A DNA stretch of 64,000 nt from Methylotenera sp. (GCA_030652995.1 JAUSAG010000036.1:12349-76348), one strand, 5' to 3'. Positions 3,723 through 40,817 are shown, numbered from the stretch's first letter. The notes: generated by a model not told the origin, from the letters alone. A program made the numbers and translations.

Positions 3723-4373
3723 ATGCAACAACCTTTAATAATAAGGCATTTGGGCGTGACAGAGTTTGAAGCCATCAGCCTTGCCATGCAAACGTTTACT
3801 GCAGCGCGCACCGGCAGCACCCCGGATGAAGTCTGGCTAACTGAACATCCTCCGGTCTATACATTAGGCCTTAACCGTAAAAATGTGCGTCAACCTATGC
3901 GTGATGATATCACCGTTATTAATACAGATCGTGGTGGAAAAATCACTTTTCATGGTCCGGGCCAAGTCATCATTTATGTGCTATTGGATTTAACACGGCG
4001 CAAGCTCAATATCCGTAGCCTAGTTAGCTTGCTCGAAAATACGGTGATAGAATTATTGGCAGATTACGATGTCATTGCCACGTCACAAAAAGAGGCCCCT
4101 GGCGTTTATGTACAACTTAAAGACGCTGGAATAGCAAAAATCGCGTCACTTGGTTTACGTATCAAAAATAATTGCTGTTATCATGGATTAAGTCTTAATG
4201 TTGAGATGGATTTAACTCCGTTTGAGGCGATAGATCCATGTGGCTACGCGGGTTTGAAGGTCATAAAAACTAAAGATTTAGGCATTACGGCAAATACACA
4301 AACATTAGGTGAGTTGTTGGTACAGAAACTTACCGCTAAATTAGAACATTTGCATGAGTCATTGGGCTCATGA
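3723..4373 (+). CDS. lipB: Octanoyltransferase LipB
   Basis: [42 protein letters not shown] and IDPCG motifs. Confidence 0.96.
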
Positions 4374-4386
4374 TACGGAAATAAGC

Positions 4387-5352
4387 ATGACTAACGCTAC
4401 CCCCACTAAAGTTGCCAGCGCCAAAATCGCCGGAGTAAAAGAAATTGACGCGGCAAAAACTTCGCGTATTCCAATCAAAATCATTCCGCAACCGATTCAA
4501 CGCAAACCAGAATGGATACGCATGAAGGCGCCCGATGGCGCACGTTATCAAGAAATAAAACGGGTGTTGCGTGACAACAATCTGCATACCGTGTGCGAAG
4601 AAGCCAGCTGCCCCAATATCGGAGAATGCTTTAGTAGCGGCACAGCAACTTTTATGATTTTGGGTGACATTTGTACGCGGCGCTGTCCGTTTTGCGACGT
4701 GGCCCACGGCAAACCGCTACCACCTGATGTCAATGAGCCAGAAAACCTTGCTCGCACCATTGCACAAATGCAACTTAAATACGTGGTGATTACCAGTGTA
4801 GATCGTGACGATTTACTCGATGGAGGTGCGCAGCACTTTGTGGACTGTATCGTTGCCGTGCGTGCGCAGTCTCCCGATATCAAAATAGAAATTCTAGTGC
4901 CGGATTTTCGTGGTCGCCTAGATATTGCCCTGCAGATTTTAAGCAAGGCACCGCCCGATGTCATGAATCATAATCTGGAGACGATCCCACGGCTCTATAA
5001 ACAAGCAAGACCAGGCTCGGATTATCAGAATTCGCTCAATTTACTCAAGGCATTTAACGAGATTTATCCACACATCCCGACAAAGTCAGGCTTAATGCTA
5101 GGGCTTGGTGAAACAGATGACGAAATTTTAACCGTGATGCAAGATTTACGCGCACACAACGTAAGCATGCTCACATTAGGCCAATATTTACAACCAAGTA
5201 TTCATCACCATCCTGTGATGCGTTACGTTGATCCGAAAATTTTTGAAACATTAAAGCTAAAAGCCGATGCCATGGGCTTTAATAATACCGCCAGCGGCCC
5301 CATGGTAAGAAGTAGTTATCACGCTGACGCACAAGCGCATCAAGTCGTGTAG
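4387..5352 (+). CDS. lipA: Lipoyl synthase LipA (radical SAM)
   Basis: [12 protein letters not shown] and CTRRCPFC cluster motifs plus C-terminal RSSYHA. ATG at 4387 (MTNAT) chosen as start. Confidence 0.97.
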
Positions 5353-5467: not shown

Positions 5468-6778
5468 ATGGTTCCGCATTTAACCACCGCACTTAATGGC
5501 CCGCTGCTGGATTTAGAAAAAAGCATGTTAGAGGCCATGCCAAACATTGAGCATTGGTTTCGCACCCAATGGCTAGAATATGCAGCGCCATTTTATGCCT
5601 CGGTTGATTTACGCAATGCGGGCTTTAAGTTAGCGCCTGTGGATACCAATTTATTCCCGGCTGGCTTTAATAATCTTAACCCGGATTTTTTGCACTTGAG
5701 TGTGCAGGCGGCAATGGTAGCGATAGAAAAAATATGCCCTGAAGCACATCGACTACTGATTATTCCTGAAAACCATACGCGCAATACCTACTACTTACGC
5801 AACGTACTTGAGCTTGCCAACATATTGAAGCAGGCGGGTATGGAAGTCAGAATAGGCTCTATTTCACCTGAAATTACTACGCCGACCAAACTTGAAACGC
5901 ACGATGGCCAGTATTTGTTGTTAGAGCCTGTGGTGCGTGTTGGCAACCGTATTAAATTACAGAGTTTTGAATCCAATGAACTGTCGCTAAAAGAATTCGA
6001 TAGCTGCGCCATTTTGCTCAATAATGACTTGTCTGGCGGCATTCCAGAAATACTAAAGAATCTGGAGCAGGATTTAATTCCACCACTCTACGCGGGCTGG
6101 AGTACACGCCGTAAATCACAACATTTTGCAGCCTACAACCGAGTAGCGGCTGATTTTTCAGCCCTTTTAGGCATTGATGAGTGGCTAATTAACCCCTACT
6201 TTGACACTTGCGGTGACATTGATTTTAATGCGCGTACAGGTGAAGATTGCCTTGCCATTAAAGTTGAACAGTTACTCGCAAAAATAAAAATTAAATACGC
6301 GCAATATGGCGTGACACAAGCGCCATTTGTGATTGTTAAGGCAAACGCTGGTACTTATGGCATGGGCATCATGACGGTAAAATCGCCCGACGATGTTCGA
6401 GGCTTAAACCGTAAAACCCGTAATAAAATGTCGGTAGTAAAAGAGGGGTTGGAAGTCACTGAAGTGATTATTCAAGAAGGCGTCTATACTTTTGAGAGCA
6501 TTAACGAAGCGGTTGCCGAACCTGTGGTATATATGATGGATCACTTTGTGATTGGCGGTTTTTATCGAGTGCACACTGGGCGTGCCATTGATGAAAACTT
6601 AAACGCGCCGGGCTCACATTTTGTACCGTTGGCCTTTGAAAAACCTTGCACTTTGCCTGACTGTGCGGGTGCGCCCGATGCAACACCTAATCGTTTTTAT
6701 GCATACGGCGTAGTCGCACGTTTGGCTTTGTTGGCTGCGGCAATTGAGTTGCAGGAGCAAGATCCGCTGAACCGATAA
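5468..6778 (+). CDS. gshA: Glutamate--cysteine ligase (betaproteobacterial GshA type)
   Basis: MVPHLTTAL start, FYASVDLRNAGFKLAPVDTNLFP, GTYGMGIM, GGFYRVH and NLNAPG; directly upstream of gshB. Confidence 0.93.
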   Translation: MVPHLTTALNGPLLDLEKSMLEAMPNIEHWFRTQWLEYAAPFYASVDLRNAGFKLAPVDTNLFPAGFNNLNPDFLHLSVQAAMVAIEKICPEAHRLLIIPENHTRNTYYLRNVLELANILKQAGMEVRIGSISPEITTPTKLETHDGQYLLLEPVVRVGNRIKLQSFESNELSLKEFDSCAILLNNDLSGGIPEILKNLEQDLIPPLYAGWSTRRKSQHFAAYNRVAADFSALLGIDEWLINPYFDTCGDIDFNARTGEDCLAIKVEQLLAKIKIKYAQYGVTQAPFVIVKANAGTYGMGIMTVKSPDDVRGLNRKTRNKMSVVKEGLEVTEVIIQEGVYTFESINEAVAEPVVYMMDHFVIGGFYRVHTGRAIDENLNAPGSHFVPLAFEKPCTLPDCAGAPDATPNRFYAYGVVARLALLAAAIELQEQDPLNR

Positions 6779-36463: not shown

Positions 36464-36497
36464 AGTAAAAACGGGCGCTGATGCGCCCGTTTTTACT
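36464..36497 (+). terminator. Intrinsic terminator after amtB
   Basis: AGTAAAAACGGGCGC-TGAT-GCGCCCGTTTTTACT perfect stem. Confidence 0.88.
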
Positions 36498-36567
36498 GGT
36501 AGGTAAAACGAAGATAAAACAATACTTAAAGGCGATATAATACACATTTACGGTTTGAGATTAACGC

Positions 36568-38553
36568 ATGACCCGCTATCGTCCTAAGTCAAACATCAAT
36601 AATAAGGCAGTACAAAAACTCTGGCAATTTACACACAGGTTTGATGCTTACGCACCATTAGTGGTGATGTTCATTATCGGGCTTATTGTATTATCCGCGT
36701 CTCGTTTTGGTCTGGTGTTGTGGAAGTTTGACCGCGTCAACACTACAGGTCAGCTTGCGGCCATTTTTATGCAAGGCATACGCGTTGATATTATCCAGCT
36801 GTGTTTACTGAGCTTAATTCCCGTACTATTGATGCCCATATTTGCCATTGCTAAATGGTGGCGCGGCTGGCAATGGTTTACTTATGTTTGGGTCACTTTA
36901 GCGGTAGTACTGCTGGTGTTTTTAGAAGTGTCCACTCCTGGATTTATTTCCGAATACGATGTACGCCCTAACCGTATTTTTGTTGAGTATCTAAAGTACC
37001 CGCATGAAGTGGCTAGCATGCTGTGGGTTGGATTTCGTATTCACATTTTTGCCACACTTAGCTTTGTTGCCCTCACGCACTATGTGATGCATGGTTTAAT
37101 GAAGCCTTGGCTCAATGCCAAATCTGCATGGTCACTCAAAACAACACTCATTACCTGGCCGTTGATTTTTGTTTTAGTGGCATTTGGCATCCGCTCTTCA
37201 TTAGGTCACCGCCCTGCTAACCCCGCGTTATTTGCGATTACCGCAGATAGTATGGTCAATAGTTTGGTGCTTAACTCTGGATATTCTGTTACTTACGCGA
37301 CTTACAATTTGCTTAAAGAAACTAAATCCAGCGACATTTACGGCAAGATGCCGCGTGAAGACGTATTCAAGATTACAGGTGCAAGCGAGGCTGATATCCC
37401 CACCTTGACTACGCTAAACCCTAGCCATCAACGTGAAAAACCACTTAACTTGGTGATTATTTTGCAAGAAAGCTTAGGCGCGACTTTTGTAGAGTCTTTA
37501 GGTGGCACGCCGGTGACGCCCAATATAGAAAGGCTGAAAAACCAAGGCATTTGGTTTGAGCAACTTTATGCTACCGGCACGCGCTCTGTGCGTGGTATTG
37601 AAGCGGTCACCTCAGGCTTTCAGCCCACGCCAGCCGACAGCACCGTGAAACTTTCAAAGTCGCAAAAGAACTTTTTCACGCTTGCTACTTTACTTGAAAA
37701 ACTAGGCTACACCACAGAGTTTATTTACGGTGGTGAATCGCACTTTGACAATATGCGTGGCTTTTTTACCGGCAATGGTTTTCAACATATTGTGGATCAA
37801 AAAGATTATATTAACCCAGTATTTGAAGCTAGCTGGGGTGTTTCTGATGAAGATTTGCTTAACAAAACGCATGAGCAACTTTTGGCGCACCACAAAACTG
37901 GCAAGCCATTTTACACGTTAGCGTTTTCATCTTCTAATCACGCGCCATTTGAGTTTCCGGATGGTCGCATTGAGTTATACGAGCAACCCAAAGCCACCGA
38001 TAACAATGCTGTAAAATATGCCGATTACGCGATTGGAGAGTTTTTCAAAAAAGCGCAGCAAAGCGCATATTGGAAAGATACTGTATTTTTAATCGTCGCC
38101 GACCATGACATTCGCGTGCGCGGTGAAACACTCGTCCCGATTGAGCGCTTTCATATTCCTGGCCTTATTTTAGGTGCTGATATTCAACCGCTGCGCTACA
38201 CAGGGATTGCAAGCCAAATTGACTTACCTGTTACCTTGCTGTCGCTCATGGGCGTGCAAGCGCAACACCCTATGACAGGACGTGATTTATCCAGCATAGC
38301 CCCTGACAGTTTTGGTCGCGCTATGATGCAATATAACGACAACTACGGCTGGATGCAGGAAAGCGAAGCGGGAAATCAAGTGGTGGTGCTACGTTCTGGT
38401 AAAGCGCCTGCGCACGGAACTTATGACGCAAAAACTAAACATTTAAGTGAAACACCCCCGCCTGTCAATGCGACAGAGTTAGAGCAACGTACGCTCGCCA
38501 ATGTATTGCTGCCAGATTTGCTTTATAACGAACAACGTTACCGTTTACCTTAA
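36568..38553 (+). CDS. LTA synthase (LtaS)-like sulfatase-fold membrane transferase
   Basis: About 5 N-terminal TM helices, then ILQESLG, TGTRSVRG (catalytic Thr), SSNHAPF and VADHD motifs. Confidence 0.88.
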   Translation: MTRYRPKSNINNKAVQKLWQFTHRFDAYAPLVVMFIIGLIVLSASRFGLVLWKFDRVNTTGQLAAIFMQGIRVDIIQLCLLSLIPVLLMPIFAIAKWWRGWQWFTYVWVTLAVVLLVFLEVSTPGFISEYDVRPNRIFVEYLKYPHEVASMLWVGFRIHIFATLSFVALTHYVMHGLMKPWLNAKSAWSLKTTLITWPLIFVLVAFGIRSSLGHRPANPALFAITADSMVNSLVLNSGYSVTYATYNLLKETKSSDIYGKMPREDVFKITGASEADIPTLTTLNPSHQREKPLNLVIILQESLGATFVESLGGTPVTPNIERLKNQGIWFEQLYATGTRSVRGIEAVTSGFQPTPADSTVKLSKSQKNFFTLATLLEKLGYTTEFIYGGESHFDNMRGFFTGNGFQHIVDQKDYINPVFEASWGVSDEDLLNKTHEQLLAHHKTGKPFYTLAFSSSNHAPFEFPDGRIELYEQPKATDNNAVKYADYAIGEFFKKAQQSAYWKDTVFLIVADHDIRVRGETLVPIERFHIPGLILGADIQPLRYTGIASQIDLPVTLLSLMGVQAQHPMTGRDLSSIAPDSFGRAMMQYNDNYGWMQESEAGNQVVVLRSGKAPAHGTYDAKTKHLSETPPPVNATELEQRTLANVLLPDLLYNEQRYRLP

Positions 38554-38558
38554 TCACT

Positions 38559-40817
38559 ATGCTTCAATCTAAAAAACAACCGAGCATGCTCACTTGGCCG
38601 ATCATTCGTAAAGGTTTGGCTTATATTTTAAGTGGTAAACTTTACATCAAACACGGGCATTTGCCGCCTGTTAACCATGTGGTACCAAATGACTTTATCG
38701 GCGTGTGCGTGGCCTCTGCCGCAGAGGACAGTATGGATGATTATGCCATTGCACAATTGCATGCATTAGGCATTAAACAAGTACGGCTTGATTTTACCTA
38801 TGGCGATTTAGAAAGCTTTAATGCGCGCTTTTTACAACGTTTAATTGCAGAACAATGTAAAGTGACCTTGCATTTAGTACAGCCTTTTGCACATGCAAGA
38901 AACATGGAAAGCGCAAACGAGCTCGCGATTTGGCAAGCCTTTGTAGATGCGGTACTCGCACGGTTTGGTGCAGGTGTCACGCGGATTGAAATCGGTACTA
39001 CCATCAACCGCAAGCGCTGGGCAGGCTATACGGTGAATGGCTTTTTGCGCGCTTGGGAGGTTGCCTTCACCGCAACGCAACAACATAACATTCAGCTCGC
39101 CGGCCCTAATGTCACAGACTTTGAGCCTATTTACAATATTGGCATATTAGCGTTGCTTAAAGCTAAAAAGCAATTGCCCGCTGTGCACACCAATAATCTC
39201 TTTTCAGAGCGTGTATCAGAACCTGAACGCTTTGATCACCGCGTGTTTAAATATCGCTGGGCGACGATTCTAAAGTATAACCTGATAAAAAAAGCGCGCT
39301 TGCTCAAAAAAATCAGCACGGACTTTGGTATCAAGCATTTCATCTCCCCCGTCGCATTTTGGGCTATTTATCGTATTCAGCGCTTACTACCTGATGGTGA
39401 GCAAAAACAAGCAGATTATGCCGCGCGTTACCTGTTGCTCAACGCCGCGTCGGGCGCGCTAGATCAAGTATCTTGGGGTGCATTGATTTGCCATCGTGAA
39501 GGTTTGATTAATGACGGTTTAAATGATGCCCAATATCCTGCGCTAGAGCGTGTAACGCACTATGCAAGCGTAGATGGTGAACTAAAAAACTTCTGGCATC
39601 ATGCCAGTTTTAATGCGTTTAAAACAGCAGCATCGATGATACAAGGCGCGCGCTATCAGGAGGCAATCTCAACAGCAACCGGCTTGGAGATTCACCACTT
39701 TCAAACTGCGCAACACGACATCCATGCGCTGTGGACAATCAACGGCAAGGTTGCTTTATTGCAAGATATTTATGATTTGGCGGATATCGGGCAAGCCGAG
39801 GCTATTAACCGAGACGGCGTCAGACTCAGTACCATGCCCGACATTGTCAACGAATCCCCTATTTACCTGCTGTGGCCTAAAAACTGTTTAGTTTCCATTA
39901 AAAGCAATCTAGCTTTAACCAAAGACCTCGCCATCCACGCGCATATTCAAGGCTTGCAATACTACCCGTTCCATCAAGCCGGCTGGTTTGGCATGATTTT
40001 AGCTAACAGTGCAGAGCAAGCCGCGTTATTAGGTCAGCAGTTGCATCCTGATAACCTAAAGAGTCCACAAAAAAACAATGCATTGCGTCACGCACGCAAT
40101 GCTATTTGGGCGCTCACTGACCCACGCAACCCTTTAAATCAGGTAACCGTTAAGCAGCCGGTAAAAATGTATCCGCACAAGGCATTTTTAGATAAGTTTA
40201 AGCCCAGTAAAGCCAAGCGTAGCTGGAATGGCGCGGTAGAGCTTTTAAGGCGTGGTGTAAATACCGCGCACCCTGTTGCTTTTTTTGAACAAGAAAATGA
40301 CAGCACACTTAAGCAGAATTTTTACATCTGTGATTATGTAAAAGCCGATTGTTCGGTAGGCGAAATGTTTGTACATTTTGCCAAAGGCAATAAGGAGTTT
40401 TACTTTACCAATAAAAACTGCGTTATTAGTGCAGAAGATACCTATGCGCAACTGGCAAACTACCTGCACCATATGCACAAATCAGGTACATTTTTCAGAG
40501 ATCTGTCTGGTGGCAATGTGTTGGTACAATGTTTGGACAATAACGAGTTGTATTTTTCACTGATTGATACCGCGCGCGCCCGTTTTTATACGTACCCAAC
40601 GCCGATTAAATACCGTACTTCTGACTTGGCACGTATCTGTAACAAACTACATTGGGCTGGTCGTGAGCGTTTCATGGGCTTATATTTAGCTAACATTGGT
40701 ATGAAATTTACCATCAAGGTAAAACTAGCCTTTAATTTGTATGATTTTAAAGTAGCATTTAAAAGAAAGTATGGGCGTAAAGGCATTAAAAAGTTAATGA
40801 ATAAATTTAAAAAGTAA
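38559..40817 (+). CDS. Fusion of a glycoside-hydrolase-like TIM barrel and an LPS-kinase (Kdo/InaA-like) domain
   Basis: C-terminal kinase: SKAKRSW, FFRDLSGGNVL, SLIDT, DLARI. The N-terminus has a (beta/alpha)8-like pattern (GIKQVRLDF, IEIGTTIN, LAGPN). Confidence 0.65.
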   Translation: MLQSKKQPSMLTWPIIRKGLAYILSGKLYIKHGHLPPVNHVVPNDFIGVCVASAAEDSMDDYAIAQLHALGIKQVRLDFTYGDLESFNARFLQRLIAEQCKVTLHLVQPFAHARNMESANELAIWQAFVDAVLARFGAGVTRIEIGTTINRKRWAGYTVNGFLRAWEVAFTATQQHNIQLAGPNVTDFEPIYNIGILALLKAKKQLPAVHTNNLFSERVSEPERFDHRVFKYRWATILKYNLIKKARLLKKISTDFGIKHFISPVAFWAIYRIQRLLPDGEQKQADYAARYLLLNAASGALDQVSWGALICHREGLINDGLNDAQYPALERVTHYASVDGELKNFWHHASFNAFKTAASMIQGARYQEAISTATGLEIHHFQTAQHDIHALWTINGKVALLQDIYDLADIGQAEAINRDGVRLSTMPDIVNESPIYLLWPKNCLVSIKSNLALTKDLAIHAHIQGLQYYPFHQAGWFGMILANSAEQAALLGQQLHPDNLKSPQKNNALRHARNAIWALTDPRNPLNQVTVKQPVKMYPHKAFLDKFKPSKAKRSWNGAVELLRRGVNTAHPVAFFEQENDSTLKQNFYICDYVKADCSVGEMFVHFAKGNKEFYFTNKNCVISAEDTYAQLANYLHHMHKSGTFFRDLSGGNVLVQCLDNNELYFSLIDTARARFYTYPTPIKYRTSDLARICNKLHWAGRERFMGLYLANIGMKFTIKVKLAFNLYDFKVAFKRKYGRKGIKKLMNKFKK

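Follow-up and report, generated by a model that had tools for sequence, protein, structure and literature searches.

The window analysed here, a 64,000-nucleotide stretch of a Methylotenera genome (GCA_030652995.1, JAUSAG010000036.1:12349-76348), contains two adjacent genes at 36568-40817 that may constitute an operon that decorates an envelope glycolipid in two compartments, with the inner core or the lipid A end of lipopolysaccharide (LPS) as the most likely target, and we regard this proposal as evenly poised between acceptance and doubt. The upstream gene, P0001, encodes an LtaS-like transferase, and the downstream gene, P0002, encodes a fusion of a glycosidase-type barrel with a kinase. 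The genome of the window, referred to as G000, belongs to the Methylophilaceae, and its nearest relatives are named Methylotenera metagenome-assembled genomes (MAGs). Both genes are intact open reading frames (ORFs):

36568..38553, + strand: P0001, 661 amino acids (aa), LtaS/OpgB-like membrane phospho-transferase of the VP1736 (PDB 3LXQ) family.
38559..40817, + strand: P0002, 752 aa, pseudo-glycosidase barrel with a β-sandwich and a WaaP-like kinase.

The structure of P0002 was modelled with AlphaFold2 (AF2) from an alignment of 49 sequences reaching down to 25% identity (predicted local distance difference test, pLDDT, 94.3; predicted TM-score, pTM, 0.92), and five parts were distinguished in the protein:

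Residues 13-24: N-terminal helix (AF2).
38697..39488, + strand: (β/α)8 barrel, residues 47-310, PslG/GH39-like by AF2, Foldseek and profile-to-PslG alignment.
39651..40004, + strand: β-sandwich, residues 365-482, of the type that follows the barrel in GH39/GH30, with an invariant W392.
40056..40703, + strand: Kdo/WaaP-type kinase domain, about residues 500-715.
40713..40814, + strand: basic C-terminal tail of two helices, residues 719-752 (AF2).

When the PDB was searched with Foldseek, PslG (5bx9) was the first match to P0002 (E 1.2e-14, TM-score 0.68 on the target), followed by GH39 5jvk (1.9e-13) and GH30 xylanases (6e-10), and the C-terminal part matched WaaP 6dfl (E 6.6e-9, TM-score 0.68). 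At the sequence level, PDB searches with the barrel as a single sequence or a shallow profile gave no match, and the PslG sequence was reached only by the barrel-only family profile, at E 1.7e-4. An earlier note on this DNA had proposed an N-terminal barrel resembling clan GH-A, and the AlphaFold and Foldseek check that it called for, now run, recovers both a PslG-like barrel and a WaaP-like kinase. The same note stated that P0002 has no signal peptide, which agrees with the hydropathy profile: the protein has no hydrophobic segment, transmembrane helix or signal peptide (maximum 19-residue Kyte-Doolittle mean 1.37), and it is therefore expected to be cytoplasmic, as a kinase using ATP must be. 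The last 45 residues contain 14 Lys/Arg against 1 Asp/Glu, and this basic tail probably attaches the protein peripherally to the cytoplasmic membrane, on its inner face.

Compared with canonical members of clan GH-A, P0002 has the barrel and β-sandwich fold, and it has neither the nucleophile Glu at the end of β7 nor the N-E-P acid/base motif. Strand β4 (residues 142-145) is followed by G-T-T-I-N-R, and the family consensus after β4 is E-I-G-(S/T)-T-(P/I)-N-R, whereas clan GH-A has E-x-x-N-E-P-N. Position 148, assigned as the acid/base from motif and strand position and not from residue-level superposition, is T43/A4/V1/S1 among the 49 members and never E or D. In the profile alignment, the Glu of ...WSTEWGW... 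in PslG, which we take to be the nucleophile E276 by the literature numbering and by residue count, falls on ...cTYtaW... of the family, which is V265 in P0002; this column is Y21/H15/V5/S4 and never E. The earlier note had pointed out that IEIGTTIN (residues 143-150) stands in place of the acid/base motif, and this reading not only holds but extends to the nucleophile position. The barrel retains R76 (β2), H105 (β3), H210/N213 (β6) and W306 (β8), whose positions line the -1 subsite in clan GH-A. Across the family, down to 25% identity, eleven positions do not vary, two of them Glu and three Arg, and E144, N150, R151, W154, E223 and R290 are among the invariant residues of the barrel. From this pattern of residues, we interpret the barrel as a pseudo-glycosidase that binds glycan in a cationic pocket, and P0002 is not a canonical glycoside hydrolase.

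The closest structural relative, PslG (5BX9/4ZN2), is a periplasmic GH39-like endoglycosidase of the Pseudomonas Psl exopolysaccharide, with E165 and E276 as its catalytic glutamates in the literature numbering. Both proteins have a (β/α)8 barrel followed by a β-sandwich, with sequence similarity at β1-β2 (DFxGxN, VRLD) and around β7-α7 and with a conserved Arg (β2), His (β3), His/Asn (β6) and Trp (β8). Unlike PslG, P0002 is cytoplasmic and has V265 in place of the nucleophile Glu and (S/T)-T-(P/I) in place of N-E-P.

The kinase domain of P0002 belongs to the Kdo/WaaP family, and its phosphotransfer residues are intact. Pfam PF06293 matches residues 539-695 at 1.6e-4 (21.6 bits against a 21.3-bit cut-off) and 40 of the 49 family members, with the best at 1.2e-16, and the family profile matches Pseudomonas aeruginosa WaaP (6DFL) at 5.6e-13. 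Important positions in this domain comprise the β3 Lys K532, E561 in αC, the catalytic loop R647-D648-L-S-G-G-N653, I669-D670-T and R673. In the alignment to WaaP 6dfl, the phosphotransfer residues K532, D648, N653 and D670 correspond to its HRD and IDL segments. In the fused members, K532 is conserved in 40/41, D648 in 40/41, N653 in 39/41, D670 in 41/41 and E561 in 31/41. The RDLSGGN and IDT motifs named in the earlier note (residues 647-653 and 669-671) are thus intact, with catalytic residues kept in 39-41 of the 41 fused members. P0002 and WaaP/RfaP (6DFL) share the kinase fold, a similar motif layout (FRDLSxGN / IDxxRA in P0002, HRDCYxxH / IDLHRA in WaaP), a cytoplasmic location and probable peripheral membrane binding. 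In contrast to WaaP, the kinase of P0002 makes up the last third of a 752-aa protein and is fused to a glycosidase-fold barrel, a fusion that we know of in no characterised PF06293 member. The family also includes KdkA, WaaY and InaA, and to our knowledge all of its characterised kinases act on LPS core sugars. Assignment of P0002 as an RfaP heptose(I) kinase (NCBIfam NF011703) was rejected, as it scores 24.6 bits against a cut-off of 170. Kdo/WaaP-type kinases also occur on other contigs of G000. The LPS-core cluster on contig C26:2396-13576 includes a glycosyltransferase family 9 (GT9) gene, a carbamoyltransferase-like gene, a 473-aa double Kdo-type kinase and a roughly 660-aa GT4-WaaP fusion, and a second, stand-alone WaaP of 272 aa is encoded at C23:107179-107994 among GT2 genes.

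In P0001, two regions were recognised:

36661..37203, + strand: five predicted transmembrane helices, residues 32-50, 75-93, 109-127, 151-169 and 190-212 (hydropathy scan).
37447..38256, + strand: catalytic domain of the sulfatase/LtaS fold (Pfam PF00884; alignment to LtaP 4uop).

The Pfam Sulfatase model PF00884 matches residues 294-563 at 1.5e-46, and no other Pfam domain was found in the protein. The basic N-terminus ahead of the five transmembrane segments indicates an N-in topology that places the C-terminal catalytic domain in the periplasm, as in LtaS. The strongest PDB match is 3LXQ (VP1736 of Vibrio parahaemolyticus, uncharacterized), which covers 442 residues (214-655) at E 2.3e-139, and the soluble 3LXQ construct begins at the position matching residue 214. 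The match to LtaP 4uop is weaker (E 2.6e-18); in this alignment E301, H457 and D522-H523 of P0001 correspond to the conserved E, H and D-H of LtaP, which we take to be metal and substrate ligands from what is known of LtaS, and Thr/Ser is present in the GTRS segment, where the nucleophile Thr is expected. With a PF00884 domain after five transmembrane helices and with the metal and nucleophile positions aligned, P0001 is a member of the LtaS/sulfatase fold. We found no paper on VP1736 or 3LXQ in a literature search.

Among the known enzymes of this fold, LtaS/LtaP are the lipoteichoic acid synthase and primase of Gram-positive bacteria, and OpgB/MdoB is phosphoglycerol transferase I. Like them and like VP1736, P0001 has a five-transmembrane N-terminal part and an extracytoplasmic sulfatase-fold domain, and its Glu, His, Asp-His and Thr/Ser segments align with those conserved in LtaP. 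The best NCBIfam models for P0001 are those of the OpgB phosphoglycerol transferase (1.5e-21) and LtaS, both far below cut-off (76.7 bits against 572 for OpgB and 51.6 bits against 970 for LtaS, both equivalog models). Unlike LtaS/LtaP and OpgB, P0001 thus falls below the equivalog cut-offs, comes from a Gram-negative host without OpgG and has relatives in LPS-core clusters. OpgG (PF04349) is absent from G000 and from 6/6 other fusion-bearing Methylophilaceae tested, which argues that P0001 is not a classical OpgB modifying osmoregulated periplasmic glucans. Membership in OpgB/MdoB was rejected on both grounds (the score and the missing OpgG), and a classical OpgB role on such glucans was rejected for the Methylophilaceae lineage. 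Models of the MCR-family phosphoethanolamine transferases reach only E 0.03-0.04, and P0001 has no EptA-type N-terminal domain, which excludes it from the EptA/EptC/MCR group.

The two genes are associated across genomes as well as in the window. In 101 Methylophilaceae genomes, both genes were present in 44, the fusion alone in 2, the P0001 ortholog alone in 0 and neither in 55; the two genomes with the fusion alone are incomplete MAGs (78% and 81% complete). With this near-perfect co-occurrence, the two genes have been gained and lost together in the Methylophilaceae, and carriers and non-carriers coexist within genera g1, g26 and g36. Where both were present (44 genomes), they are in tandem in 25, convergent in 1 and, in the other 18, on other contigs or far apart. 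Outside these genomes, an unlinked P0001 ortholog with 52-63% identity was found in 14 of 16 further fusion-bearing genomes (Methylophaga, Porticoccus, Rhodocyclaceae, Azoarcus and Methylophilaceae), and in a sample of 401 genomes of the class 4 of the 5 fusion genomes have a P0001-like gene. When 90 fusion loci were compared, a P0001 ortholog was directly upstream on the same strand in 35, with gaps of -4 to 32 bp (median 5), and such tandem loci come from the Methylotenera clade, from Methylobacillus and from one further lineage of Methylophilaceae. On the tree of the fusion, adjacency has changed at least 6-7 times, and the genes found upstream of the fusion in place of the P0001 ortholog (QueF, SMR and a YjiK-like propeller) are unrelated housekeeping genes. 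On these grounds, tandem order in only 35/90 loci, the repeated changes of adjacency and the unrelated upstream genes, the LtaS-like gene was rejected as an obligatory operon partner.

In the syntenic locus of G074, a single deletion joins P0001 residues 22-183 to P0002 residues 705-751. In this locus (L112, G074:C1:1993000-2005000, about 5588-6193), the LtaS-like remnant has stop codons and is fused to the last 47 kinase codons, so both genes were lost in one event. In genus g27, three species with genomes of 1.3-1.4 Mb (G089, G075 and G026) have one in-frame TGA each in the fusion gene, and G075 also has two TAA codons in the LtaS-like gene, which may represent early decay of the pair.

The constant unit is the barrel with the kinase, fused or neighbouring, and the LtaS-like gene is often elsewhere in the genome. 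The fused architecture gave 301 species hits in the GTDB genome set and 116 representatives at E ≤ 1e-30 in a 50%-clustered protein library, and the best matches listed span Methylophilaceae, Rhodocyclaceae/Azoarcus/Methyloversatilis, Methylophaga, Porticoccus and Alcanivorax; in the class sample the fusion is rare (5/401 genomes). Stand-alone barrels of 440-470 aa carry the same invariant residues as the fusion. In other bacteria, the barrel and a Kdo-family kinase are encoded next to each other by separate genes. In L107, 3 bp separate a 460-aa barrel gene from a 277-aa Kdo-family kinase gene downstream of it, and GT4 and sulfotransferase genes come next. The barrel gene of L101 stands beside a 270-aa Kdo-family kinase gene in divergent orientation, and in L106 a membrane-anchored barrel is encoded 5' of a PMT/ArnT-type GT-C gene. 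The link between barrel and kinase predates their fusion.

Several further observations concern the fusion and its barrel. In the tree of 86 fusion proteins, Methylophaga and Porticoccus (Gammaproteobacteria) nest in the Methylophilaceae beside L039 and L053, which suggests horizontal transfer of the fusion among methylotrophs and marine hydrocarbon degraders. In 1.3-Mb streamlined Methylophilaceae of genus g23, the only gene in the syntenic slot between amtB and mltA encodes a divergent barrel of 399 aa with 26% identity to P0002 residues 6-439 (L122, G086:C1:1227000-1237000, ORF 4141-5340); this slot contains neither a kinase domain nor an LtaS-like gene, and P0236, a relative of this barrel, has lost the N150/R151 motif. 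In one Methylotenera MAG (L030:5983-8244), the fusion is split into ORFs of 389 and 364 aa by a frameshift or an assembly error.

The neighbourhoods of both families contain LPS genes. In L039 and L053, a GT9 heptosyltransferase gene is directly upstream of the fusion, with or without the LtaS-like gene between them, and a divergent GT4 gene is also present; in Rhodocyclaceae, the genes flanking the fusion encode an MsbA-like ABC exporter, a small Kdo-type kinase and a glycosyltransferase-like protein. Relatives of P0001 show similar contexts in genomes that have no fusion. In L116, the LtaS-like gene comes after a GT9 gene, and the cluster also contains WaaA, a true KdkA (289 bits, where the cut-off is 142), another GT9 and an O-antigen ligase, and in L121 a P0001-like gene adjoins GT9 and HldE. 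Across the 90 loci, no exopolysaccharide (EPS) or capsule genes were found flanking the pair, and the unlinked P0001 orthologs in G083 and G010 have insertion sequence elements, PilZ, a two-component system and KefC-like genes as neighbours. Three independent sets of evidence, the contexts of the fusion, the contexts of P0001-like genes without the fusion and the family of the kinase, lead to the LPS inner core, and the gene contexts point to this target over EPS or periplasmic glucans.

In the window itself, P0001 and P0002 look like a two-gene operon amid unrelated housekeeping genes. Two features were located beside and within it:

36469..36495, + strand: intrinsic terminator of the glnK-amtB unit, read from the sequence as a GC-rich hairpin (acgggcgc/tgat/gcgcccgt) followed by a T run.
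38554..38558, + strand: intergenic spacer of 5 nt, with no terminator or promoter-like site.

The stop codon of P0001 (TAA) is at 38551-38553 and the ATG of P0002 at 38559, so that the 5-bp distance given in the earlier note and both of its ORFs are exact, and a terminator-like site was looked for between the two genes and none was seen. The terminator at about 36469-36495 sets the pair apart from the upstream gene, assigned as amtB by Pfam, and the pair is followed by a small pqqA, a GAF-PAS-GGDEF gene and a convergent mltA. A perfect TATAAT is located at 36536-36541, between the amtB terminator and P0001 and 26 nt 5' of the P0001 start, and it has no good -35 partner. In related loci, a major facilitator superfamily (MFS) gene lies upstream of the LtaS-like gene (L014, L015, L017, L019, L023, L024, L027 and others) or upstream of the fusion (L008-L010). 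This gene matches the LplT-like N-terminal part of Aas-type models (444 bits, model positions 3-423) without the acyltransferase part, and it is missing at the corresponding position in the window.

Based on these features, a two-compartment route can be proposed, in which we infer the substrate, the transferred group and the order of the two steps. P0002 would act at the cytoplasmic face of the inner membrane, held there by its basic tail. The dead barrel, judging from its fold, its sugar-contacting residues and its Arg/Lys-rich invariant set, would hold the anionic oligosaccharide of a lipid-linked precursor, and the WaaP-like domain, with its intact site and its family relationship, would move phosphate from ATP to a sugar hydroxyl. 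The glycolipid would then be flipped, and P0001 would add a phospho-alcohol on the periplasmic side by chemistry of the LtaS/OpgB/Ept type. The added group may be phosphoglycerol or phosphoethanolamine from a membrane phospholipid, possibly placed onto the phosphate installed by the kinase. A comparable division of labour is known in E. coli and Salmonella, where cytoplasmic WaaP phosphorylates heptose I (HepI) and the periplasm-facing sulfatase-fold enzyme EptC (CptA) then adds phosphoethanolamine. By analogy, the route proposed here would also use a cytoplasmic PF06293 kinase and a polytopic, periplasm-facing PF00884 transferase on one glycolipid; it differs in that P0001 is a five-transmembrane enzyme of the LtaS/OpgB/VP1736 type and in that the E. 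coli genes are not paired in an operon.

Several observations weigh against this proposal. G000 has two bona fide WaaP genes elsewhere (304 and 247 bits with NF011703), and its standard LPS-core cluster is outside the window. With both WaaP genes at equivalog level and the core cluster on other contigs, the possibility that P0002 is the WaaP of G000 was rejected; its target would therefore not be the usual HepI, and it would serve a different position or a different molecule. No LPS gene adjoins the pair in the window, where the neighbours are glnK-amtB, pqqA, the GGDEF gene and mltA. In the class sample, one fusion genome (G213) has no P0001-like gene, and 9-10 of the 401 genomes have a P0001-like gene (37-52% identity) and no barrel homolog even by profile search. 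Strict two-way dependence was rejected on the latter ground, and the dependence is one-sided: the fusion nearly always occurs with the transferase, and the reverse does not hold. The functional gene pair put forward in the earlier note is therefore upheld in its co-occurrence and in the tandem order of 35/90 loci, and it is weakened by this one-sidedness and by the frequent separation of the LtaS-like gene. In the barrel, the acid/base assignment at T148 is based on motif and strand position, and with E144 and E223 invariant, an active site of a non-canonical type is conceivable.

These two glutamates are the starting point for one rival explanation, in which the barrel is alive: a relocated catalytic set (E144, E223, N150, R151 and R290) would perform new chemistry on a phosphorylated sugar, for example cleavage or formation of a glycosyl-phosphate bond, and the fusion would be a bifunctional editing enzyme. 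The eleven positions that stay invariant down to 25% identity are more than a purely lectin-like role would seem to need, and the stand-alone barrel proteins keep the same residues. However, both canonical catalytic positions are non-acidic in every member, and a protein that keeps its binding residues and loses both catalytic Glu has the typical profile of a pseudo-enzyme, so we give a live barrel little credence. Another explanation concerns the substrate. The pair could modify an envelope glycan other than LPS, namely an undecaprenyl-phosphate-linked intermediate of capsule or EPS, a periplasmic glucan or a glycolipid, with P0001 as an OpgB- or CgmB-type phosphoglycerol transferase. PslG, to which the barrel is structurally closest, acts on an exopolysaccharide, the OpgB models are the best NCBIfam matches of P0001 even if far below cut-off, and L107 has a sulfotransferase gene and a UDP-glucose dehydrogenase-type gene nearby. 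Set against this are the absence of OpgG from G000 and the six other genomes, the lack of flanking EPS or capsule genes in the 90 loci, and the recurrence of GT9, WaaA, KdkA, HldE and MsbA-like genes as neighbours of both families, and we consider a non-LPS glycan decidedly unlikely.

The pair could also be linked to the housekeeping of membrane lipids. P0001 would consume phosphatidylglycerol or phosphatidylethanolamine and release diacylglycerol, and either the fusion and the LplT-like MFS protein would handle the lipid by-products, or a lipid or protein would be the substrate of the kinase. The LplT/Aas-N-terminal-type MFS gene is directly upstream of the tandem pair or of the fusion in many loci of the Methylotenera clade, Methylobacillus has a convergent gene for outer-membrane phospholipase A on the downstream side, and L006 has a phospholipase D-like gene upstream. 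P. aeruginosa WaaP has been reported to have protein tyrosine kinase activity, which would be in line with a protein target. These MFS and phospholipase neighbours occur, however, in no more than one or two genera, and simple synteny may account for them. The characterised PF06293 kinases, as far as we know, all act on LPS sugars, and the glycosidase fold of the barrel, with its conserved sugar-subsite residues, favours a carbohydrate as the ligand, so that a lipid role is very unlikely in our view. The decoration of the LPS inner core or lipid A end therefore remains our preferred reading. Within the LPS inner core, a more specific version can be formulated, in which barrel and kinase together form an undescribed two-site enzyme: the GH39-derived barrel would have been rebuilt through E144, E223 and the Arg cluster for a phosphorylated or anionic sugar, and the VP1736-type enzyme would complete a new pyrophospho- or phosphodiester decoration (e.g. 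P-glycerol or PP-ethanolamine) on the phosphate added by the kinase. We hold this version as unlikely, if worth stating.

In conclusion, the locus presents a conserved kinase architecture that has not been studied, and in it a clear case from nature of a glycosidase that has become a non-hydrolytic module. In our literature search, no relevant publication was found on the barrel-kinase fusion, the barrel family, a pseudo-glycosidase joined to a kinase or a Gram-negative LtaS-like protein. Stiffness of the outer membrane, its cation binding and its resistance to cationic peptides are determined by the phosphate and phospho-alcohol substituents of lipid A and the LPS inner core, and the known enzymes for these substituents (WaaP, WaaY, KdkA and EptA/B/C) come almost entirely from enteric bacteria and Pseudomonas. 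If the two-site version is true, the pair would represent a new pathway of outer-membrane modification, found mainly in methylotrophs and marine hydrocarbon degraders. The pair also provides the first functional lead for the VP1736/3LXQ family, an orphan of structural genomics, and it is a genetically clean test case, as both genes occur in cultured methylotrophs, in tandem in some and unlinked in others; laboratory carriers include Methylobacillus flagellatus, Methylobacillus glycogenes and Methylotenera mobilis (loci L076, L037 and L014). If the proposed model is true, a kinase would have gained its glycan specificity by capturing a dead hydrolase, and a new decoration would be added to LPS chemistry.

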